Of a stretch of 39,842 bases of DNA, positions 1,025-39,796 are shown piece after piece. The notes beneath the pieces are model-generated. The model was not told the DNA's origin. It worked only from the letters and a program-made list of their open reading frames with translations, and did not search any database. Position numbers and translations under genes: made by a program. Within the stretch, counting starts at the first letter, position 1; every line of letters starts with the position of its first letter. The DNA comes from Escherichia phage JeanTinguely. Location of the stretch: sequence record MZ501081; one strand, written 5' to 3'.

Positions 1025-2785
1025 GTGTCTACTCAAGCCAATCGTAATGCGCTCGTAGTGGCGCAACTGAAAGGAGACTTCGTGGCGTTCCTGTTCGTCT
1101 TATGGAAGGCGTTAAACCTTCCGGTGCCCACTAAGTGTCAGATTGACATGGCTAAGGTACTGGCGAATGGAGAAAACAAGAAGTTTATTCTACAGGCTTT
1201 CCGCGGTATCGGTAAGTCATTCATCACATGTGCGTTCGTTGTGTGGTCCTTATGGAGAGACCCTCAGTTGAAGATACTTATCGTATCAGCCTCTAAGGAA
1301 CGTGCAGACGCTAACTCCATCTTCATTAAGAACATCATTGACCTTCTACCGTTCCTAGCTGAGTTAAAGCCAAGACCCGGACAGCGTGATTCTGTAATCA
1401 GCTTTGACGTTGGCCCAGCTAAACCTGACCACTCTCCTAGTGTTAAATCGGTGGGTATCACTGGTCAGTTAACTGGTAGCCGTGCTGACATTATCATTGC
1501 GGATGACGTTGAGATTCCGTCGAATAGTGCAACTATGGGTGCCCGTGAGAAGCTATGGACTCTGGTTCAGGAGTTCGCTGCGTTACTTAAACCGCTGCCT
1601 TCCTCTCGCGTTATCTACCTTGGTACACCTCAGACCGAGATGACTCTCTATAAGGAACTTGAGGATAACCGTGGGTACACCACTATCATCTGGCCTGCTC
1701 TGTACCCAAGGACGCATGAAGAGAACCTCTATTACGCACAACGTCTTGCGCCTATGTTACGCGCTGAGTACGATGAGAACCCTGAGGCGCTCGCTGGGAC
1801 TCCTACGGACCCTGTGCGCTTTGACCGTGATGACCTGCGTGAGCGTGAGTTGGAATATGGTAAGGCTGGCTTCACACTACAGTTCATGCTTAACCCGAAC
1901 CTGAGTGATGCCGAGAAGTACCCTCTGAGGCTCCGTGACGCTATCGTAGCGGCCTTAGACTTAGAGAAGGCCCCAATGCATTACCAGTGGCTTCCGAACC
2001 GTCAGAACATCATTGAGGACCTTCCTAACGTGGGTCTTAAAGGTGATGACCTGCATACCTATCATGATTGTTCCAACAACTCAGGTCAGTACCAACAGAA
2101 GATTCTGGTCATTGACCCTAGTGGTCGCGGTAAGGACGAAACAGGTTACGCTGTGCTGTACACCTTGAACGGTTACATCTACCTTATGGAAGCTGGAGGT
2201 TTCCGTGATGGCTACTCCGATAAGACCCTTGAGTTGCTCGCTAAGAAAGCGAAGCAATGGGGAGTCCAGACGGTTGTCTATGAGAGTAACTTCGGTGATG
2301 GTATGTTCGGTAAGGTATTCAGTCCTATCCTTCTTAAACACCACAACTGTGCGATGGAAGAGATTCGTGCTCGTGGTATGAAGGAGATGCGTATTTGTGA
2401 TACCCTTGAGCCAGTCATGCAGACTCACCGCCTTGTCATTCGTGATGAGGTCATTAGGGCCGACTATCAGTCCGCTCGTGATGTAGACGGTAAGCATGAC
2501 ATTAAGTATTCACTGTTCTACCAGATGACCCGTATCACCCGTGATAAAGGCGCTCTGGCTCACGATGACCGATTAGATGCCCTTGCGTTAGGCGTTGAGT
2601 ATCTCCGTGAGTCCATGCAGTTGGATTCCATTAAGGTCGAAGGTGAAGTGCTTGCTGACTTCCTTGAGGAGCACATGATGCGTCCTACAGTGTCTGCTAC
2701 CCACATCATTGAGATGTCTGTGGGAGGGGTTGATGTGTACTCTGAGGACGATGAGGGTTACGGTACGTCTTTCATTGAGTGGTGA
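1025..2785 (+). CDS. 19: Terminase large subunit / DNA maturation protein B (gp19), 586 aa
   Basis: GTG start after RBS taaggagg; 586-aa product colinear with T7 gp19 end to end (…GYGTSFIEW). Confidence 0.95.
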
Positions 2786-2822
2786 TTTATGAGGCCAAGG
2801 AGGGCCACTTTAAGGAGGTAAT

Positions 2823-3263
2823 ATGATAAGCAAGAAGAAGTATGTAATTGATAAGGATACTGGCTGCTGGAACTTTAAGGGCTGTAAGACGAAGACTGGC
2901 TATGGTCGCATTCGTGTAAATGGAGTCCATTGGATGGCCCACAGGTATTCCCTGAGTTGTCATCTAGGTAGACCGATAGCTGACGGAATGGTTGTGATGC
3001 ACCTATGTGATAATCCTTCATGCGTTAACCCTGAGCACCTTAAGGAAGGGACTCAGAAGGAGAACATAGAGGATTGTATATCAAAAGGCAGGGCAACAAA
3101 GGCTACTGGCAAACGTGTGTCGAGGAGGGACCCTAGTGAGGAACGTAAGGCTATGGTCATTCGTCGATACCATAAAGGGTGGACAGCAACGTCCATAGCG
3201 AGATACCATAAGCTCTCTGTGGCGTGGGTAAAGCTGGTAATTGAGGCTTACCTAAGTGATTGA
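2823..3263 (+). CDS. Free-standing HNH homing endonuclease, 146 aa
   Basis: RBS aaggagg 7 nt before ATG; HNH motif with paired Cys/His (…GYGRIRVNGVHWMAHRYS…HLCDNPSCVNPEHL…); no counterpart at this locus in T7. Confidence 0.8.
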   Translation: MISKKKYVIDKDTGCWNFKGCKTKTGYGRIRVNGVHWMAHRYSLSCHLGRPIADGMVVMHLCDNPSCVNPEHLKEGTQKENIEDCISKGRATKATGKRVSRRDPSEERKAMVIRRYHKGWTATSIARYHKLSVAWVKLVIEAYLSD

Positions 3264-3314
3264 TATTTGAAATTAGTGATACAGGTCTAAGTATATGATT
3301 CCAGACCATTATTC

Positions 3315-3337
3315 TAATTCGACTCACTATAGGGAGA
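3315..3337 (+). promoter_or_regulatory. T7 RNAP promoter, phiOR equivalent
   Basis: taattcgactcactatagggaga, 1 mismatch to the 23-bp T7 consensus taatacgactcactatagggaga. Confidence 0.8.
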
Positions 3338-3428
3338 AGCCTACCTAAAGATAACTATAAGACTTAAAGTGGCCTATAAGGTAGGTTGTTATTATTGTTA
3401 ATACAACCAACATAAAGGGAGGAGACTA

Positions 3429-3578
3429 ATGTTCCGCTTATTGTTGAACCTATTGCGGCATAGAGTCACCTACCGCTTTCTTATGGTACTTTGTGCTGCC
3501 CTTGGGTACGCATCGCTTACTGGAGACCTCAGTTCACTGGAGTCTACCGTTTGCTCTTTACTCACTTGTAGCGATTAG
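3429..3578 (+). CDS. 19.5: gp19.5 homolog, 49 aa small hydrophobic protein
   Basis: ATG after RBS gggagga; MFRLLLNLLRHRVTYRFL... matches T7 gp19.5; below the ORF-track length cutoff. Confidence 0.75.
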   Translation: MFRLLLNLLRHRVTYRFLMVLCAALGYASLTGDLSSLESTVCSLLTCSD

Positions 3579-3818
3579 GGTCTTCCTGACCGACTGATGG
3601 CTCACCGAGGGATTCAGCGGTATGATTGCATCACACCACTTCATCCCTATAGAGTCAAGTCCTAAGGTATATCCATAAAGAGCCTCTAATGGTCTATCCT
3701 AAGGTCTATACCTAAAGATAGGCCATCCTATCAGTGTCACCTAAAGAGGGTCTTAGAGAGGTCCTAAGGGGGTCCCTAGAGGGTCCTTTAAAATATACCA
3801 TAAAAATCTGAGTGACTA

Positions 3819-3999
3819 TCTCACAGTGTACGGACCCAAAGTTCCCCCATAGGGGGGGTCCTAAAGCCCAGCCAATCACCTTGAGTCAACTTTCAGTTGA
3901 CTTTGAGGGTCCCTAAGGGTTGGGGTTGGTCCTTTGGGTTATCTTTGAGTGTTGCTTTGAGTGTCTCTTTGTGTCCCTATCTGTTACAACCTCCTAAAG
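3819..3999. repeat. Terminal-repeat sequence of the mature genome (single copy present; boundaries approximate)
   Basis: tctcacagtgtacgg...ctgttacaacctcctaaag is colinear with the T7 direct terminal repeat, which starts with TCTCACAGTGTACGG at the genome left end; only one copy occurs in the window. Confidence 0.55.
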
Positions 4000-4140
4000 T
4001 CACCTCCTAAAGTCATTCCTACCGTCTACAGCCTAAAGCCTAAACCTAAAGACCCATCAAGTCAACGCCTATCTTAAAGTATCCTCTAAAGACCAGCCTA
4101 AAGACCAGCCTAAAGACCAGCCTAAAGCCTATCCCTAAAG
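4000..4140. repeat. Left-end array of short cctaaag-type repeats, including a 12-bp unit gaccagcctaaa x3 at 4091-4126
   Basis: Direct inspection: repeated (c)ctaaag heptamers and three perfect tandem copies of gaccagcctaaa. Confidence 0.8.
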
Positions 4141-4200
4141 CCTATCCTATAGATGCCCTGTTGTTGCCTATAAAGAGATAATCTTCAATCATTGTCTTTC

Positions 4201-4223
4201 TAATACGACTCACTATAGAGAGA
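4201..4223 (+). promoter_or_regulatory. T7 RNAP promoter, phiOL equivalent
   Basis: taatacgactcactatagagaga, 1 mismatch to consensus. Confidence 0.8.
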
Positions 4224-4287
4224 GACAGACAGAGAGACTACTTAAAGAGCCTTAAAGAGAGAAATTAAAGTTTTTAAAAAAAGAGTA

Positions 4288-4316
4288 TTGACTTAAAGGG
4301 TCATAGGGTTTACTAT
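4288..4316 (+). promoter_or_regulatory. Host sigma70 early promoter A1
   Basis: -35 ttgact (4288-4293), 17-bp spacer, -10 tactat (4311-4316), upstream A/T tract; colinear with T7 A1. Confidence 0.7.
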
Positions 4317-4413
4317 TCATCTCGTCAACGGGACAACGGCCCAAAGCCACTCCCTGAGATACCGGAGTCAACCGGATAAGTAGGCAGCCTGTAAGCCATA
4401 CGAAAAACAGGCA

Positions 4414-4443: not shown

Positions 4444-4520
4444 ACACAGCGTCAATCGGTAGCACACGGTGTCTTCTAGGTGACTTAAGCGCACCACGGC
4501 ACATAAGGTGAACAAAACGG

Positions 4521-4549
4521 TTGACAACATGAAGTAAACACGGTACGAT
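4521..4549 (+). promoter_or_regulatory. Host sigma70 early promoter A3
   Basis: -35 ttgaca (4521-4526), 17-bp spacer, -10 tacgat (4544-4549). Confidence 0.7.
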
Positions 4550-4667
4550 GTACCACATGAAACGACAGTGAGTCACCACACTGAAAGGTGATGCGGTCTA
4601 ATGAAACCTGACCAAAGACGCTCTTTAACAATCTGGTAAATAGCTCTTGAGTGCATGACTAGCGGAT

Positions 4668-10115: not shown

Positions 10116-10142
10116 ATTTAACCAAACATGGAGATAAACATT

Positions 10143-11159
10143 ATGATGAACATTAAGACTAGCCCGTTTAAAGCAGTGTCTTTCGTAGAGTCTGCCATTA
10201 AGAAAGCTCTGGATAACGCTGGGTATCTTATTGCTGACATTAAGTACGATGGTGTGCGTGGTAACATCTGCGTAGACAATACTGCTAACTGCTGCTGGCT
10301 CTCTCGTGTGTCTAAAACGATTCCGGCACTGGAGCACTTAAACGGATTCGATGTTCGCTGGAAGCGTCTGCTGAACGATGACCGTTGCTTCTACAAAGAT
10401 GGCTTTATGCTCGATGGGGAACTCATAGTCAAGGGCGTGGACTTTAACACAGGGTCTGGCCTACTGCGCACCAAGTGGCTCAACAAGAATAACTTTGAGT
10501 TCGACGTTGGCGGTGTACCTCCGCTCAAGGGGTCCAAGGTTGAGTTCGCGTTGGACACCAAACGTCTGAGTGTCAAACTGTACGCTATCCTCCCTCTGCA
10601 CATCGTGGAGTCTGGTGAAGACTATGATGTCATGACGTTGCTCATGCAGGAACACGTTAAGAACATGCTGCCTCTGCTACAGGAATACTTCCCTGAAATC
10701 GAATGGCAAGCGGCTGAATCTTACGAGGTCTACGATATGGTAGAACTACAGCAACTGTATGAGAAGAAGCGTGAAGAAGGCCATGAGGGTCTCATTGTGA
10801 AAGACCCGATGTGCATCTACAAGCGAGGCAAGAAGTCCGGCTGGTGGAAACTTAAGCCTCTTGAGGAAGCTGACGGCATCATTCAAGGTGTAAACTGGGG
10901 AACAGAAGGACTTGCTAACGAAGGTAAGGTAATTGGATTCAAGGTGCTTCTTGAGACTGGTCGTCTTGTCGATGCCAATAACATCTCTCGCGCCTTAATG
11001 GATGAATTTACAGATAACGTTAAAGAACATGGCGAGGACTACTATAATGGGTGGGCTTGCCAGATTGGATTTATGGAGGAAACACCTGATGGCTCACTAC
11101 GTCACCCGTCCTTCACCTGCTTCCGAGGAACTGAGGACAATCCGAAAGAGAAAGTATAA
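10143..11159 (+). CDS. 1.3: ATP-dependent DNA ligase (gp1.3), 338 aa
   Basis: MMNIKTSPFKAVSFVESAIKKALDNAGYLIADIKYDGVRGN... contains the ligase adenylation motif KYDG; start set at the MMNIKT ATG as in T7 (the ORF track starts 15 nt earlier). Confidence 0.93.
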   Translation: MMNIKTSPFKAVSFVESAIKKALDNAGYLIADIKYDGVRGNICVDNTANCCWLSRVSKTIPALEHLNGFDVRWKRLLNDDRCFYKDGFMLDGELIVKGVDFNTGSGLLRTKWLNKNNFEFDVGGVPPLKGSKVEFALDTKRLSVKLYAILPLHIVESGEDYDVMTLLMQEHVKNMLPLLQEYFPEIEWQAAESYEVYDMVELQQLYEKKREEGHEGLIVKDPMCIYKRGKKSGWWKLKPLEEADGIIQGVNWGTEGLANEGKVIGFKVLLETGRLVDANNISRALMDEFTDNVKEHGEDYYNGWACQIGFMEETPDGSLRHPSFTCFRGTEDNPKEKV

Positions 11160-11559
11160 GTATAACCCTGCGGCTCCTTCTGGAGTCGTTTCCGCCTCTG
11201 GTAAACCAATAGGTTACAAGCGGAAAGATGGGTATTGGCTACTTTCTTATGGAGGAAAGCATGTACTTGCACACAGGGTTGTCTGGATGCTTAACTTCGG
11301 TGTCATACCTGAGGGAATGGTGATAGACCACATTAACAGAAACCCTAGCGATAACCGAATAGAGAATCTTCGAGTAGTAACTCAATCAGCTAACCTAATG
11401 AACGTAGGCGTCCGGTCTCACTGTAGGAGTGGAGAGAAGTTTATCTCCCTTGATGTGAGAACCGGACGTTTTTCCGTTCGTATCAGGAGAAAATCCTATG
11501 GCACATATGGTACTCTCGAAGAGGCTATAGCTGTGCGCGATGCTAATACGACTCACTAA
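11089..11559 (+). CDS. HNH endonuclease with C-terminal AP2-like DNA-binding domain, about 156 aa (start inferred)
   Basis: HNH core HRVVWMLNFGVIPEGMVIDHINRNPSDNRIENLRVVTQSAN plus AP2-like RTGRFSVRIRRKSYGTYGTLEEAIAVRD; RBS ggagga 8 nt before ATG 11089; overlaps the last 71 nt of the ligase gene in another frame. Confidence 0.7.
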   Translation: MAHYVTRPSPASEELRTIRKRKYKYNPAAPSGVVSASGKPIGYKRKDGYWLLSYGGKHVLAHRVVWMLNFGVIPEGMVIDHINRNPSDNRIENLRVVTQSANLMNVGVRSHCRSGEKFISLDVRTGRFSVRIRRKSYGTYGTLEEAIAVRDANTTH

Positions 11560-17736: not shown

Positions 17737-19695
17737 ATGATCGTTTCTGACATCGAAGCTAACGCCCTCTTAGAGAGCGTCACTAAGTTCCACTGCGGGG
17801 TTATCTACGACTACTCCACCACTGAGTACGTAAGCTACCGTCCGAGTGACTTCGGTGCGTATCTGGATGCGCTGGAAGCCGAGGTTTCACGAGGCGGTCT
17901 TATTGTGTTCCACAACGGTCACAAGTATGACGTGCCTGCATTGACCAAACTGGCAAAGTTACAGTTGAACAGAGAGTTCCACCTTCCTCGTGAGAACTGT
18001 ATTGACACCCTTGTGCTGTCACGTTTGATTCACTCTAACCTAAAGGACACCGATATGGGTCTCCTGCGTTCCGGTAAGTTGCCGGGGAACCGCTTTGGGT
18101 CTCACGCTTTGGAGGCGTGGGGTTATCGCTTAGGCGAAATGAAGGGTGAATACAAGGACGACTTTAAGCGTATGCTTGAAGAGCAAGGTGAAGAATACGT
18201 TGACGGAATGGAGTGGTGGAACTTCAACGAAGAGATGATGGCCTATAACGTTCAGGACGTTGTGGTCACTAAAACTCTCCTTGAGAAGCTACTCTCTGAC
18301 AAACATTACTTCCCTCCTGAGATTGACTTTACGGACGTAGGATACACTACGTTCTGGTCAGAATCCCTTGAGGCCGTTGACATTGAGCATCGTGCTGCAT
18401 GGCTACTCGCTAAGCAAGAGCGCAATGGGTTCCCGTTTGACACGAAAGCAATCGAAGAATTGTACGTAGAGTTAGCTGCGAGACGCTCTGAGTTGCTACG
18501 TAAATTGACAGAAACGTTCGGCTCGTGGTATCAGCCGAAAGGTGGCACTGAGATGTTCTGCCATCCACGAACAGGTAAGCCACTGCCTAAATACCCTCGC
18601 ATTAAGATACCTAAAGTTGGTGGTATCTTTAAGAAGCCTAAGAACAAGGCACAGCGAGAAGGCCGTGAGCCTTGCGAACTGGACACCCGCGAGTACGTTG
18701 CTGGTGCTCCTTATACGCCAGTTGAGCACGTAGTGTTTAACCCATCGTCTCGTGACCACATTCAGAAGAAACTCCAAGAGGCTGGGTGGGTCCCCACGAA
18801 GTACACCGATAATGGTGCGCCTGTGGTGGACGATGAGGTACTCGAAGGAGTACGTGTAGATGACCCTGAGAAGCAAGCTGCCATCGACCTCATTAAAGAG
18901 TACCTGATGATTCAGAAGCGAATCGGACAGTCTGCTGAGGGAGACAAGGCGTGGCTTCGTTACGTTGCTGAGGACGGTAAGATTCATGGTTCTGTTAATC
19001 CCAACGGCGCTGTTACTGGGCGCGCTACTCACGCTTTCCCTAACCTCGCACAAGTACCCGGTGTCCGTTCTCCTTATGGTGATAAGTGCCGCGCTGCTTT
19101 TGGCGCTGAACATCACCTAGACGGTATTACTGGTAAGCCTTGGGTTCAGGCTGGCATCGACGCATCCGGTCTGGAGCTACGCTGCTTGGCCCACTTCATG
19201 GCTCGCTTTGATAACGGTGAGTACGCTAGAGAGATTCTTCATGGCGACATCCACACTAAAAACCAGCTAGCTGCTGAATTACCTACCCGTGATAACGCAA
19301 AGACGTTCATCTATGGGTTCCTCTATGGTGCTGGCGATGAGAAGATTGGGCAGATTGTTGGTGCTGGTAAAGAGCGCGGTAAGGAACTCAAGAAGAAATT
19401 CCTTGAGAACACACCCGCGATTGCAGCACTCCGCGAGTCTATCCAACAGACACTTGTCGAGTCCTCTCAGTGGGTAGCTGGTGAGCAACAAGTCAAGTGG
19501 AAACGCCGCTGGATTAAAGGTCTGGATGGTCGTAAGGTACACGTTCGTAGTCCTCACGCTGCCTTGAATACACTACTGCAATCTGCTGGTGCTCTTATCT
19601 GCAAACTGTGGATTATCAAGACCGAAGAGATGCTAGTAGAGAAAGGCTTGAAGCATGGCTGGGATGGGGACTTTGCGTACATGGCATGGGTGCAT
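17737..19695 (+). CDS. 5: DNA polymerase (gp5) exon 1, codons 1-653
   Basis: [69 protein letters not shown]... colinear with T7 DNA polymerase up to ...DFAYMAWVH; the frame then hits a stop 8 codons later. Confidence 0.9.
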
Positions 19696-20296
19696 AAACT
19701 ATCTCATTGTGCACATTAAATCTGGTGAACTCGGTGAAACCCTTCTGGGGCAATACCGAGCCAAGCCATAGGGAGGATATATGAGAGGCAAGAAGTTAAT
19801 CCTTGCGGCCACAGAGAGTGGTTGTATCATCCCTACGTCGCACAAACTTAATGCTGATGGTTATTTCCGAAAGAAGACGAACGGTGTCCTAGAGATGTAT
19901 CACAGGACAGTCTGGAAGGAACACTACGGAGATATACCAGAAGGGTATGAAGTAGACCACAAGTGTAGGAACAGGGCGTGCTGTAACGTAGAGCACCTCC
20001 AGTTACTAGAAGGTTCTGAGCATACAGTCAAGACAAACAGGGAACGCTACGCTGACCGTAAAGAGTCCGCGAAGGAATACTTGTTGGAGACTGGATGTAC
20101 AGGAACACACTTAGGTGAGAAGTTTGGTGTAACGTTCTCTGCCGCTTGTAAGTGGATTAGAGAGTGGAAGGCGTAGAGACTATCCGAAAGGAGTAGGGCC
20201 GAGGGTGAAATTCCCTCGTTACCCGAAGCGCCAGACAGTCAACTCAAAGGCTGATGATATAGTCCGACACTCCTAGTAATAGGAGAATACAGAAAG
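19696..20296 (+). mobile_element. Group I-type intron (601 nt) in gene 5 carrying an HNH homing-endonuclease ORF
   Basis: Interrupts an otherwise colinear 704-codon gene; preceded by exon U (19695), ends in G (20296); intron gugcac (19709-19714) can pair with exon-terminal gugcau (19690-19695) to form a P1 helix with a U-G wobble at the splice site. Confidence 0.75.
19781..20176 (+). CDS. Intron-encoded HNH homing endonuclease, 131 aa
   Basis: RBS gggagga before ATG; HNH motif ...YHRTVWKEHYGDIPEGYEVDHKCRNRACCNVEHLQLLEGSEH... Confidence 0.85.
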   Translation: MRGKKLILAATESGCIIPTSHKLNADGYFRKKTNGVLEMYHRTVWKEHYGDIPEGYEVDHKCRNRACCNVEHLQLLEGSEHTVKTNRERYADRKESAKEYLLETGCTGTHLGEKFGVTFSAACKWIREWKA

Positions 20297-20452
20297 GATG
20301 AGATTCAAGTAGGTTGCCGTACCGAAGAGATTGCTCAGGTGGTCATTGAGACCGCACAAGAAGCAATGCGCTGGGTTGGAGACCACTGGAACTTCCGGTG
20401 TCTTCTGGATACCGAAGGTAAGATTGGTCCGAATTGGGCAGTATGTCACTAA
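20297..20452 (+). CDS. 5: DNA polymerase (gp5) exon 2, C-terminal 51 codons
   Basis: DEIQVGCRTEEIAQVVIETAQEAMRWVGDHWNFRCLLDTEGKIGPNWAVCH matches the C-terminus of T7 gp5; no start codon or RBS of its own; exon1+exon2 = 704 aa. Confidence 0.85.
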   Translation, partial: DEIQVGCRTEEIAQVVIETAQEAMRWVGDHWNFRCLLDTEGKIGPNWAVCH

Positions 20453-36800: not shown

Positions 36801-37792
36801 TGAACGGCACTACTAACTACCTTCTGGATGCTGCGCGTCAAGGGATGCTTGGGGATATTATTAGTGCCACCTTAACAGGTAAGACTACCCGCTGGGAGAA
36901 AGAAGGATTCCTTCGGGGTGCCTCCGTAACTCCTGAGCAGATGGCTGGCATCAAGTCTCTCATCAAGGAACATATGGTACGTGGTGAGGACGGTAAGTTT
37001 ACCGTTAAGGACAAGCAAGCGTTCTCTATGGACCCACGGGCTATGGACTTATGGCGACTTGCTGACAAGGTAGCTGATGAGGCAATGCTGCGTCCGCATA
37101 AGGTGTCCTTACAGGATTCCCATGCGTTCGGAGCACTAGGTAAGATGGTAATGCAGTTTAAGTCTTTCACTATCAAGTCCCTTAACTCTAAGTTCCTGCG
37201 AACCTTCTATGATGGATACAAGAACAACCGAGCGATTGACGCTGCGCTGAGCATTATCACCTCAATGGGTCTCGCTGGTGGTTTCTATGCTATGGCCGTA
37301 CACGTCAAAGCGTATGGGATGCCTAAGGAGAAACGTAAGGAGTATTTGGAGCGTGCATTGGACCCAACCATGATTGCCCACGCTGCGTTGTCTCGTAGTT
37401 CTCATTTAGGTGCTCCTTTGGCTATGGTGGACCTCATTGGCGGTGTCTTGGGGTTCGAGTCATCAAAGATGGCTCGCTCTACGATTCTACCTAAGGACAC
37501 CATGAAGGAACGTGACCAAAACAAACCGTACACCTCTAGAGAGATAATTGGCGATATGGGTTCAAACCTTCTGGAACAGATGCCTTCTGCTGGCTTTGTG
37601 GCTAACGTAGGGGCGACCCTGATGAATGCTGCTGGTGTTGTCAACTCACCTAACAAAGCAACCGAGCAGGACTTCATGACTGGCTTAATGAACTCTACCA
37701 AAGAGTTAGTACCGAACGACCCATTGACTCAACAGCTTGTGTTGAAGATTTATGAGGCCAATGGTGTGAACTTGAGGGAACGTAGGAAATAA
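33836..37792 (+). CDS. 16: Internal virion protein D (gp16) with N-terminal lytic transglycosylase domain, 1318 aa
   Basis: MDKYDKNVPSEYDGLFQKAADATGVSYDLLRKVAWTESRF...GMMQFT (transglycosylase motif); same length as T7 gp16. Confidence 0.95.
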   Translation: MDKYDKNVPSEYDGLFQKAADATGVSYDLLRKVAWTESRFVPTAKSKTGPLGMMQFTKATAKALGLRVTDGPDDDRLNPELAINAAAKHLAELVSKFDGDELKAALAYNQGEGHFGNPQLEAYSKGDFASISEEGRNYMRNLLDVAKSPMAGQLETFGGITPKGKGIPAEVGLAGIGHSQKVTRELPESTSFDVKGIEQEAPAKPFAKDFWETHGETLDEYNNRSTFFGFKNAAEAELSNSVAGMAFRAGRLDNGFDVFKDTITPTRWNSHIWTPEELEKIRKEVKNPAYINVVTGGSPENLDDLIKMANENFEADSRAAEAGLGAKLSAGVIGAGVDPLSYVPMVGVTGKGFKLINKALVVGAESATLNVASEGLRTSVAGGDADYAGATLGGFVFGAGMSAISDAVAAGLKRSKPEAEFDNEFIGPMMRMEARETARNANSTDLSRMNTENMKFEGEHNGVPYAELPTERGAVVLHDGSVLSASNPINPKTLKEFSEVDPEKAARGIKLAGFTEIGLKTLGSDDADIRSVAIDLVRSPTGMQSGASGKFGATASDIHERLHCTDQRTYNDLYKAMSDAMKDPEFSTGGAKMSREEVRYTIYRRAALAIERPELQKALTPSERIVMDIIKRHFDTKRELMENPAIFGNTKAVSIFPESRHKGTYVPHVYDRHAKALMIQRYGAEGLQEGIARSWMNSYVSRPEVKARVDETLKEVHGVNEVTPEMVEKYAMDKAYGISHSDQFTNSSIIEENIEGLVGIENNSFLEARNLFDSDLSITMPDGQQFSVNDLRDFDMFRIMPAYDRRINGDIAIMGSTGKTTKELKDEILALKAKAEGDGKKTGEVHALMDTVKILTGRARRNQDTVWETALRSINDLGFFAKNAYMGAQNITEISGMIVTGNVRALGHGIPILRDILYKSKPVSAKELKELHASLFGKEVDQLIRPKRADIVQRLREATDTGPAVANIVGTLKYSTQELAARSPWTMMLNGTTNYLLDAARQGMLGDIISATLTGKTTRWEKEGFLRGASVTPEQMAGIKSLIKEHMVRGEDGKFTVKDKQAFSMDPRAMDLWRLADKVADEAMLRPHKVSLQDSHAFGALGKMVMQFKSFTIKSLNSKFLRTFYDGYKNNRAIDAALSIITSMGLAGGFYAMAVHVKAYGMPKEKRKEYLERALDPTMIAHAALSRSSHLGAPLAMVDLIGGVLGFESSKMARSTILPKDTMKERDQNKPYTSREIIGDMGSNLLEQMPSAGFVANVGATLMNAAGVVNSPNKATEQDFMTGLMNSTKELVPNDPLTQQLVLKIYEANGVNLRERRK

Positions 37793-37812
37793 TACGACTC
37801 ACTATAGGGAGA
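37790..37812 (+). promoter_or_regulatory. T7 RNAP class III promoter phi17
   Basis: Perfect consensus; overlaps the gene 16 stop codon. Confidence 0.9.
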
Positions 37813-37864
37813 GGTGAAAGAATCTTCTCCCTGTAGTCTCTTAGATTTACTTTAAGGAGGTCAA

Positions 37865-39796
37865 ATGGCTAACGTAATTAAAACCGTTTTGACTTACCAG
37901 TTAGATGGCTCCAAGCGTGATTTTAATATCCCGTTTGAGTATCTAGCCCGTAAGTTCGTAGTGGTAACTCTTATTGGTGTAGACCGCAAGGTTCTTACGA
38001 TTAATGCAGACTACCGTTTTGCTACACGTACTACCATATCACTGACCAAGGCTTGGGGTCCAGCCGATGGCTACACGACCATCGAGTTACGTCGAGTAAC
38101 CTCAGCGACCGACCGATTGGTTGACTTTACGGACGGCTCCATCCTCCGTGCGTATGACCTTAACGTTGCTCAGATTCAGACAATGCACGTAGCGGAAGAG
38201 GCTCGTGACATGACTGCGGATACTATCGGTGTCAACAATAACGGTCACTTGGATGCCCGTGGTCGTAAGATTGTGAACCTAGCGTTCGCTACTGGCGACT
38301 ATGATGCCGTCCCACTTAAGCAGATTAAGGAACGTGAGACCTCTGTGTGGAACGCTGTTACTAAAGCTGATGAACACGCTAACCGCTCCAACAAGGAAGC
38401 CAATCGCTCACGCGACGAAGCTGACCGCGCGAAACGTGAAGCTGACCGCTCGACCCAACAGGCAGGTGTTTCTACGGCACAAGCAGTTGAGTCCAAGAAT
38501 CAAGCTGACCGTTCCAACTCTGAGGCCAATCGTGCTAAAGGCTATGCTGACAGTATGACCGCAAGTGTCGCTGAGGCCAAGAAGCAAGCTGACCGTTCCA
38601 ACTCTGAGGCCAATCGTGCCCGTGATGAGGCCAATCGTTCTGCCGGAGAAGTGACTAAGGCTGCTGCTGAGGTTGCTAAAGCTGCTGCACACGTTGAGAC
38701 CGCTAAGGGACACGCTGACCGTGCTAACACTGAGGCTAACCGCTCTAAGAGTGAAGCTGACCGTGCTAAGACTGAGGCCGATAAGTTGGGTAATATGAAT
38801 GGCCTCGCGGGAACCATTGAGAGCATTGGGAGTAACGGCAAGGATGTGAACTTCAAAGGTGGCGTGAATGGTCACACACTTCTAGCTAAAGATTCTGTAC
38901 ACGTTGGGGTTCAGCCAAACACTGCGTCACTCACTGAAACCACACTACGCATTCGCAACCGTAACAACAAGGAGCGCACTTGGGACATCTATGCTTGGGG
39001 TAATGATTCTGGACGTGGTAATGTGCTTGAGTTCGGGTCTAACTATGGTCAAACATGGGGGATGTACTTGCAGTTTGCTAAAGGTGACTCACAAGATTCA
39101 CGACTTAGTGTTAATGGTGAGATTGTAGCTAAGACAGATATTTCAGGAAGGGGCATCACAGCAAGTGGGCAATTGATTACCAGCTCGCCATTCCTTAAGC
39201 TGATTAACTCTGGTCGTCGCCACATTCAGTTCATGACTGCCGATAACTACACTGATGGTTATCTCTACAAAGACCCCGGTGTTGGTGTGTGGAGACTTAA
39301 CTTTGGTCAGGCAGCTAGCATGGAGTATACGTTTGCTTCAAATGGTACATTAACATCCAGCTCCGGCTGGTATATCCCACCAGATGGCAACCTGTACATC
39401 CAGAAATATGGACTGTATATTGATACGTGGGTTAACAACCGCTTGGGCGAACACGCCTACACCAAAGGAGAAGTGAACAACTTGGTCAATGCTCGATTGA
39501 CACAAGCCCAAGCTGATGCTCGATACGTCAATAAGAATGCTGGGTGGGCTGAGGTGTGGAAAGGCACTGCTGGTGGTGGTGTTTCCGTAGGTCTCTCACA
39601 GGATGTCCGATGGAGAACTATCTGGATTCAGACTAACGGACGCTGGAACGCTGTGCCTATTGGTGACAATGCGTCTTACTTCATCGCGTCTGATGGTGGC
39701 TGGTTGAAGTTCACTATCTCCAACAACGGGCGAACATTCCGTAACGATGAGGATCACCACTCTGTACCAACTCGTATTCTAGTACAGAGCCAATAA
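37865..39796 (+). CDS. 17: Tail fibre protein gp17, 643 aa, with divergent middle region and extended coiled-coil
   Basis: N-terminus MANVIKTVLTYQLDGSKRDFNIPFEYLARKFVVVTLIGVDRKVL and C-terminus ...GGGVSV...YFIASDGGWL... resemble T7 gp17; from about residue 145 to the C-terminal domain the sequence differs and is 90 aa longer overall. Confidence 0.93.
   Translation: MANVIKTVLTYQLDGSKRDFNIPFEYLARKFVVVTLIGVDRKVLTINADYRFATRTTISLTKAWGPADGYTTIELRRVTSATDRLVDFTDGSILRAYDLNVAQIQTMHVAEEARDMTADTIGVNNNGHLDARGRKIVNLAFATGDYDAVPLKQIKERETSVWNAVTKADEHANRSNKEANRSRDEADRAKREADRSTQQAGVSTAQAVESKNQADRSNSEANRAKGYADSMTASVAEAKKQADRSNSEANRARDEANRSAGEVTKAAAEVAKAAAHVETAKGHADRANTEANRSKSEADRAKTEADKLGNMNGLAGTIESIGSNGKDVNFKGGVNGHTLLAKDSVHVGVQPNTASLTETTLRIRNRNNKERTWDIYAWGNDSGRGNVLEFGSNYGQTWGMYLQFAKGDSQDSRLSVNGEIVAKTDISGRGITASGQLITSSPFLKLINSGRRHIQFMTADNYTDGYLYKDPGVGVWRLNFGQAASMEYTFASNGTLTSSSGWYIPPDGNLYIQKYGLYIDTWVNNRLGEHAYTKGEVNNLVNARLTQAQADARYVNKNAGWAEVWKGTAGGGVSVGLSQDVRWRTIWIQTNGRWNAVPIGDNASYFIASDGGWLKFTISNNGRTFRNDEDHHSVPTRILVQSQ

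Follow-up and report, generated by a model that had tools for sequence, protein, structure and literature searches.

The open reading frame at positions 2823-3263 of the Escherichia phage JeanTinguely genome (sequence record MZ501081) is very probably a free-standing HNH (His-Me finger) homing endonuclease gene. We infer homing for a 146-aa protein that would combine a nuclease core like those of I-HmuI and I-PpoI with one Cys3His site and a C-terminal helix-turn-helix (HTH). The gene is already known as the counterpart of gene 19.4 of phage 13a, and belongs with the ordinary selfish mobile genes; the element is not of a new type. The window, by which we mean the whole 39,842-nt stretch of DNA that was analysed, is a circularly permuted T7-like (Teseptimavirus) genome that runs from holin gene 17.5 through genes 18, 18.5 and 19 to the right end, the left end, gene 0.3 and onward. 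A preliminary description had placed a 146-aa ORF between the gene 19 stop (2785) and a promoter at 3315, an arrangement borne out by the sequence, the ORF list and a promoter scan. The features of the locus are as follows.

1025-2785, + strand: gene 19, terminase large subunit, 586 aa, intact; left flank of the cassette (ORF list, Pfam)
2792-3405, + strand: 614-bp heterologous block, the HNH-bearing haplotype of the gene 19-19.5 spacer (multiple and pairwise alignments)
2812-2819, + strand: Shine-Dalgarno sequence AAGGAGGT of the HNH gene (read from the sequence)
2823-3263, + strand: HNH (His-Me finger) endonuclease gene, counterpart of phage 13a gene 19.4 (ORF list, Pfam, PHROG, homologues)
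2823-3092, + strand: catalytic and putative zinc-binding domain, residues 1-90 (57-sequence alignment, Pfam, dN/dS)
3129-3254, + strand: C-terminal three-helix HTH, the presumed DNA-recognition domain, residues 103-144 (HTH_23, model, fold matches)
3315-3337, + strand: phiOR-equivalent T7 RNA polymerase promoter TAATTCGACTCACTATAGGGAGA, +1 at 3332 (promoter scan; HNH-linked haplotype)
3338-3428, + strand: leader of gene 19.5, of which the 3' part (~3363-3405) is a diverged homologue, ~69% identical, of the T7-type leader (alignments)
3429-3578, + strand: gene 19.5, 49 aa; right flank, Bas104-type sequence (ORF list; Pfam DUF5465)

The locus and its expression signals

The HNH gene starts with ATG on the + strand, and the strong ribosome binding site claimed for it is present as AAGGAGGT, 3 nt before the start codon. 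Folding gave no significant RNA structure that would sequester this site (z-score -0.70). To its left, gene 19 encodes 586 aa, as does T7 gene 19 (37370-39130), and because the two are of equal length gene 19 is intact, as had been proposed. The gene 19 product also matches the Pfam family Terminase-T7_RNaseH-like (E 5.6e-40). Gene 19.5, to the right, is likewise intact in the ORF list. An intron or intein at the gene 19 locus was rejected: the gene has its full length, and the window holds no match, at this locus or elsewhere, that attains an Rfam gathering score. The HNH gene lies outside any intron or intein, between two intact neighbours, as is characteristic of free-standing homing endonuclease genes (HEGs). 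The corresponding interval in T7, from the gene 19 stop (39130) to phiOR (+1 at 39229), is non-coding, again as stated beforehand.

The 23-mer TAATTCGACTCACTATAGGGAGA that follows the HNH gene has one mismatch against the T7 consensus, and its position aligns with the annotated phiOR of phage 13a. In total, 11 T7-type promoter sites were found in the window, compared to 0 expected in shuffled sequences. None of them is directly upstream of the HNH gene, in agreement with the preliminary description; the nearest + strand site 5′ of it is at 37790, reached around the circular permutation. We detected neither a terminator-like site nor a convincing sigma-70-like promoter between 2500 and 3900, and on these grounds an uncoupling of the ORF from gene 19 transcription was rejected. 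With no promoter directly upstream and no terminator-like site, transcription of the HNH gene by read-through from gene 19 is a reasonable expectation.

The encoded protein and its relatives

The assignment of the protein to the HNH nucleases is far beyond chance. Residues 39-81 match Pfam HNH_3 (PF13392) with an E-value of 8.9e-9 and 35.3 bits against a cutoff of 24.8, and the full length matches PHROG 6254, 'HNH endonuclease', with an E-value of 6.4e-58. The C-terminal part matches HTH_23 (E 1.9e-5, 24.7 bits against a cutoff of 24.6), and residues 55-101 match zf-His_Me_endon (PF05551; E 8.7e-6) at 26.4 bits, which is 0.6 bits under the cutoff of 27. Two kinds of HNH model had been put forward for this search; the PF13392 match is above threshold, whereas the classical HNH model PF01844 gave no match at E<=1. 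We then aligned the protein with 56 homologues, down to ~32% identity with it, and in these 57 sequences C15, G28, H40, H60, C62, C67, H72, L73 and N81 are invariant. The HNH motif with paired Cys and His residues that had been read from the sequence is therefore upheld, both by HNH_3 and by the invariance of C15, H40, H60, C62, C67, H72 and N81. Four of these residues, C15, C62, C67 and H72, make up a candidate Cys3His zinc site, to which the PF05551 match just under its cutoff also points. The spacing H60-x-C62-x4-C67-x4-H72-x8-N81 equals that of H98/C100/C105/H110/N119 in I-PpoI, which form its first zinc site and active site.

A search of PDB sequences matched I-HmuI only, and weakly (E 0.72), in an alignment that pairs H60 with the catalytic His and N81 with the metal-binding Asn of I-HmuI. 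The AlphaFold2 model, built on the alignment, has a mean pLDDT of 90.9. It predicts a beta-beta-alpha core (strands 56-60 and 73-77, helix 78-88; pLDDT ~95), a low-confidence linker (~residues 90-100) and three C-terminal helices (104-117, 122-129 and 133-145), so that, by alignment and model, a catalytic His (H60) and a metal-binding Asn (N81) are found on the predicted core. Foldseek against the PDB ranked I-HmuI (1u3e) first with a probability of 1.00 and a weak E-value of 3e-3, followed by four I-PpoI entries and then by Smad-MH1/NFI domains. The C-terminal helices gave fold matches to the HTH domains of Fis, resolvase and Hin. Together, the model and its matches indicate that the HNH protein is a homing-type His-Me-finger nuclease, small and composed of two domains.

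I-HmuI (PDB 1U3E), from Bacillus phage SPO1, resembles the window protein in having a beta-beta-alpha-metal core followed by a C-terminal helical DNA-binding module, and the two are 26% identical over 95 columns. I-HmuI is, however, an intron-encoded nickase without the Cys3His zinc site, whereas the window gene is free-standing. The second-best fold match, the His-Cys box enzyme I-PpoI (PDB 1A74/1CYQ), is the protein on whose zinc loop PF05551 was built. It differs in its eukaryotic nuclear intron origin, and the window protein has no evident second zinc site or dimerisation tail.

T7 gp2.8, gp5.3 and gp7.7, as well as the gene 5 intron HNH of T7-like phages, also belong to the HNH_3 family. 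In tblastn comparisons these T7-group proteins are 36-44% identical to the window HNH protein over the catalytic core; however, they are encoded at other loci and have other C-terminal domains, and are paralogues, not counterparts, of the gene studied here. Two HNH_3 paralogues of this gene are found elsewhere in the window. DNA polymerase gene 5 (17737-20449) is interrupted: its coding sequence breaks off after ...DFAYMAWVH and continues at DEIQVGCRTEE. The intervening sequence of 601 bp (19696-20296) matches Rfam Intron_gpI over the full model, with 36.8 bits (E 1.3e-7) where the gathering score is 50, and holds a 131-aa HNH_3 ORF (19781-20176; E 6.7e-17). Gene 5 of the related phage Bas104 is annotated as a joined CDS with an internal HNH endonuclease, and because this arrangement matches we take the intervening sequence to be the known group I intron of T7-like phages. 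The third HNH_3 ORF of the window (11002-11559; E 3.2e-20) is listed with 185 aa and overlaps the DNA ligase gene (10128-11159) at the latter's end. In Bas104 an 'endonuclease' gene is annotated before the ligase gene and none after it, and the two genomes appear to differ in the nuclease genes flanking ligase as well.

Spacer haplotypes and exchange between genomes

The preliminary description viewed the HNH gene as a free-standing insertion and suggested alignment with T7-group genomes to define its boundaries. Alignment with T7, Bas104 and 13a supports this view with one correction: the gene is free-standing and its occurrence is patchy, but it is not a clean insertion before an unchanged phiOR, as the whole spacer belongs to a linked haplotype. 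A 614-bp block (2792-3405) stands in place of the T7-type spacer, which is 227 bp in Bas104 and 229 bp in T7. In the alignment with T7, Bas104 and 13a, the left edge lies six bases past the gene 19 stop (TGA TTTATG). Identity with T7 and Bas104 ends after TGATTTATG and restarts at ACCAACATAAAGGGAGG, which is the gene 19.5 ribosome binding site. The gene 19-19.5 intergenic region is 643 bp long in the window, compared to 256 bp in Bas104 and 258 bp in T7.

Within the block are the HNH ORF, a 51-bp spacer, a phiOR copy of its own and a different leader. When the ORF is removed in silico, what is left can be aligned with the T7-type spacer in three places only: TTTATG, the promoter core and a ~65-bp block before the gene 19.5 ribosome binding site that is ~69% identical. 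The 165-bp piece at 3264-3428 occurs in 31 records and the HNH gene is present in 31/31 of them, a co-occurrence that makes the ORF and the phiOR variant one linkage unit. We rejected the simple-insertion model because the spacer, including phiOR and the leader, is a different and strictly linked haplotype. As judged from these alignments, there are two deeply diverged spacer haplotypes between flanks that are 95-100% identical. This is the pattern that would be expected if the HEG-less sequence holds the target and the HEG-bearing sequence is immune. As anticipated for self-immunity, the HEG-bearing and HEG-less alleles differ beside the insertion, where the spacers are non-homologous or, in the alignable part, ~69% identical, between flanks that are 99-100% identical.

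No significant RNA fold was found in the leader that links phiOR to gene 19.5 (z-score 0.07), and a consensus structure of the pre-19.5 leader across genera had no predicted pairs, because the Berlin-type sequences do not align. A 6-bp stem just 5′ of the gene 19.5 ribosome binding site (window 3384-3408; T7 ~39340-39365) is present in both haplotypes, as GGTTGT...ACAACC in the window and GGTGAT...ATCACC in T7 and Bas104, with two compensatory differences. The region around the stem has the same z-score of 0.07, and the stem may be due to chance.

The exchange of haplotypes was examined in a three-way comparison of the window with Bas104, which lacks the HNH gene, and LNA7, the nearest cassette relative. 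The window and Bas104 are 100% identical over 2101-2785 (685 bp, up to the left junction). Across 43 informative sites between 1807 and 2764, the window matches Bas104 at 40/43, including all 38 from 1861 on, and matches LNA7 only at 1807, 1840 and 1858. Around the locus it is LNA7-like only within the cassette, and from 3422 it is again Bas104-like and not LNA7-like, with 99.3% identity to Bas104 in the gene 19.5 flank (3451-3600). The breakpoints fall within ~22 bp (left) and ~17 bp (right) of the heterologous block. These comparisons show that the haplotype was swapped, with exact edges, between genomes that are otherwise almost the same. With LNA7 the cassette shares only 95.5% identity, and no co-conversion tract from an LNA7-like donor is visible, LNA7 being the nearest sampled donor and the true donor unsampled. 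The cassette may have come from a close relative that is not among the sampled phages, or else the lineage of Bas103/104 may have swapped it for a T7-type spacer. In the HNH-bearing phages, the cassette (90-95.5% identical to that of the window) has diverged roughly in step with gene 19 (92-95% identical), which suggests a long, vertical residence of the cassette in these lineages and speaks against a recent sweep. The terminal-repeat/early-promoter region holds more patches of mosaicism relative to Bas104, with the window 33% identical to Bas104 and 97% identical to LNA7 over 4501-4650, and diverged from both over 3900-4350.

Since no co-conversion tract is visible, the difference between the window and Bas104 could have arisen by ordinary recombination between close relatives without a nuclease. 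The enzyme might be a competition nuclease that does not home: it would cut co-infecting T7-type genomes at phiOR/right end (marker exclusion), and the cassette would move by ordinary recombination only. Such a role is consistent with the lack of a visible tract, with cassette divergence that tracks genome divergence, and with haplotypes that exclude each other and have different phiOR regions. It is, however, hard to separate from homing, as the HNH-bearing genome is the expected template for the repair of a break beside homologous flanks, and we consider competition without homing unlikely. Our preferred reading remains a homing endonuclease.

Distribution, selection and proposed function

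A megablast search with positions 2300-3800 identified 29 phage records that cover the whole query, 13a included. In 13a (NC_011045), gene 19.4 (YP_002003987.1) is annotated 'HNH endonuclease' and is followed by phiOR and gene 19.5, and RefSeq annotates an HNH endonuclease likewise in N30, HZ2R8, HZP2, CICC 80001, 3A_8767, IME390 and Vi06. The slot, the linked phiOR variant and the domain layout are as in the window in 13a as well as in N30, HZ2R8, HZP2, CICC 80001, 3A_8767, IME390, LNA7, Yanou and YpYeO9. Window-type alleles share 92-97% protein identity with the window gene; its exact allele is absent from the databases, where the nearest protein is 96-97% identical. The searchable literature yielded no paper characterising the HNH gene and no cleavage or homing experiment, 13a gp19.4 included. 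We found nothing specific to the gene in the literature on gene 19.4/gp19.4 and 13a, the YpYeO9 paper or the BASEL paper, and nothing usable on phiOR and packaging.

The HNH-bearing cassette was found in 30-31 T7-like phage records and the T7-type spacer, counted when covered over >=80% of its length, in 152. The HNH ORF is absent from T7, phiA1122, YpP-Y, SYGE1, Bas103 and Bas104. These records have flanks that are 96.6-99.2% identical, and cover only 59% of the 2300-3800 query. The closest genomes to the window are those of the BASEL phages Bas103 and Bas104, with 97-98% identity over 97-98% of a 24.6-kb query. Sporadic presence and absence among close relatives at a fixed locus is typical of HEGs. 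A conserved core gene, the alternative raised at the outset, does not agree with absence from T7 and Bas103/Bas104 and presence in ~30 other T7-like phages. Vi06, Salmonella phage BP12A, Yersinia phage Berlin and Yep-phi have related HNH genes between genes 19 and 19.5 as well; those of Berlin and Yep-phi can be aligned with the window protein over the N-terminal catalytic portion only (75% identity, residues 6-89). The slot is a recurrent home of this HEG lineage across the Studiervirinae.

The distribution also bears on whether the gene encodes a packaging-associated HNH protein like HK97 gp74, which would work with terminase on concatemer ends and so explain a position by the terminase gene and the genome end. 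The gene is directly 3′ of the large terminase gene and ~550 bp ahead of the terminal repeat region, terminase-assisting HNH proteins exist in cos phages (PMC10448857), and gp74-type proteins are likewise HNH-superfamily nucleases encoded beside terminase genes near the genome end. HK97 gp74, however, belongs to a different HNH subfamily and is conserved and required in its own phages. For the window gene we found neither conservation in all related phages, its closest relatives lacking it, nor the PF01844 match that would mark a gp74-like protein; its domains are HNH_3, zf-His_Me_endon and HTH, and its best folds are homing enzymes. The gene must be dispensable for T7-type packaging, since T7, Bas103/Bas104 and the 152 records with an HNH-less spacer do without it, as does phiA1122, and the T7 terminase has a nuclease domain of its own (Terminase-T7_RNaseH-like). 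We regard a role in packaging as highly improbable.

Among 10 window-type alleles the HNH gene has a dN/dS of 0.08 (mean dN 0.030, dS 0.358), lower in the catalytic half (0.05) than in the C-terminal half (0.14), and the ORF is full length in 12/12 alleles examined. By these measures the gene encodes an intact, functional and selectively maintained protein. Many phage HEGs degenerate after fixation, and the zf-His_Me_endon score lies just under the Pfam cutoff, but we give almost no credence to a passively carried remnant, decaying or inactive, of what was once a homing endonuclease, because dN/dS is 0.08, all examined alleles are full length, and every invariant catalytic and candidate zinc residue is present.

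Compared to 13a, the first 84 codons are near-identical (dS 0.35, dN 0.03), whereas the remainder of the gene is saturated (dS >2, dN 0.63). The 13a/Vi06 alleles are 69.7% identical overall to the window allele, from which they differ by a strongly diverged linker and HTH half. A C-terminal dN of ~0.6 with saturated dS, set against the N-terminal dS of 0.35, indicates that the gene is a mosaic in which the linker and HTH half stems from an allele that is far more distant. This one locus has at least two classes of C-terminal allele, window-type and 13a/Vi06-type. The mosaicism fits the shuffling of domains that has been described for phage HEGs, which are commonly located beside essential genes, terminase genes among them (PMC10448857).

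We hypothesize that the HNH gene is transcribed late, from class III transcripts that start at phi13/phi17 and run through gene 19. In a mixed infection the enzyme would nick or cut the T7-type (HNH-less) haplotype at a recognition site inside the T7-type spacer (T7 ~39137-39365) or across a junction. Recombinational repair from the HNH-bearing genome would then copy the cassette in, and the HNH-bearing genome would be immune because its own spacer sequence differs. We propose a target in the spacer or at a junction because the coding flanks of the window are identical to those of an HNH-less phage; a target wholly within the flanks would be self-destructive, since the window carries the nuclease together with Bas104-type flanks. 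The T7-type spacer is most likely to hold the target.

The T7 phiOR/right-end region is involved in concatemer processing and packaging. We speculate that the HNH gene and its private phiOR/leader variant could form a co-adapted unit, in which the nuclease targets the T7-type phiOR/right-end spacer and so both drives its inheritance and cripples competitor packaging. The linker/HTH classes (window-type, 13a/Vi06-type and Berlin-type) would then be specificity shifts in an arms race at one slot. This extension of the homing model is a long shot.

The analysis gives the correct annotation for the ORF at 2823-3263, although its practical value is modest, and T7-group biology as known is unchanged by the finding. 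What it adds is that the HNH gene moves together with a phiOR/leader haplotype of its own, and that the window phage and Bas103/Bas104 are a clean natural presence/absence pair, with identical flanks and only the cassette differing. The likely target is narrowed to ~230 bp of T7 DNA (39137-39365), in a phage with easy mixed-infection genetics.
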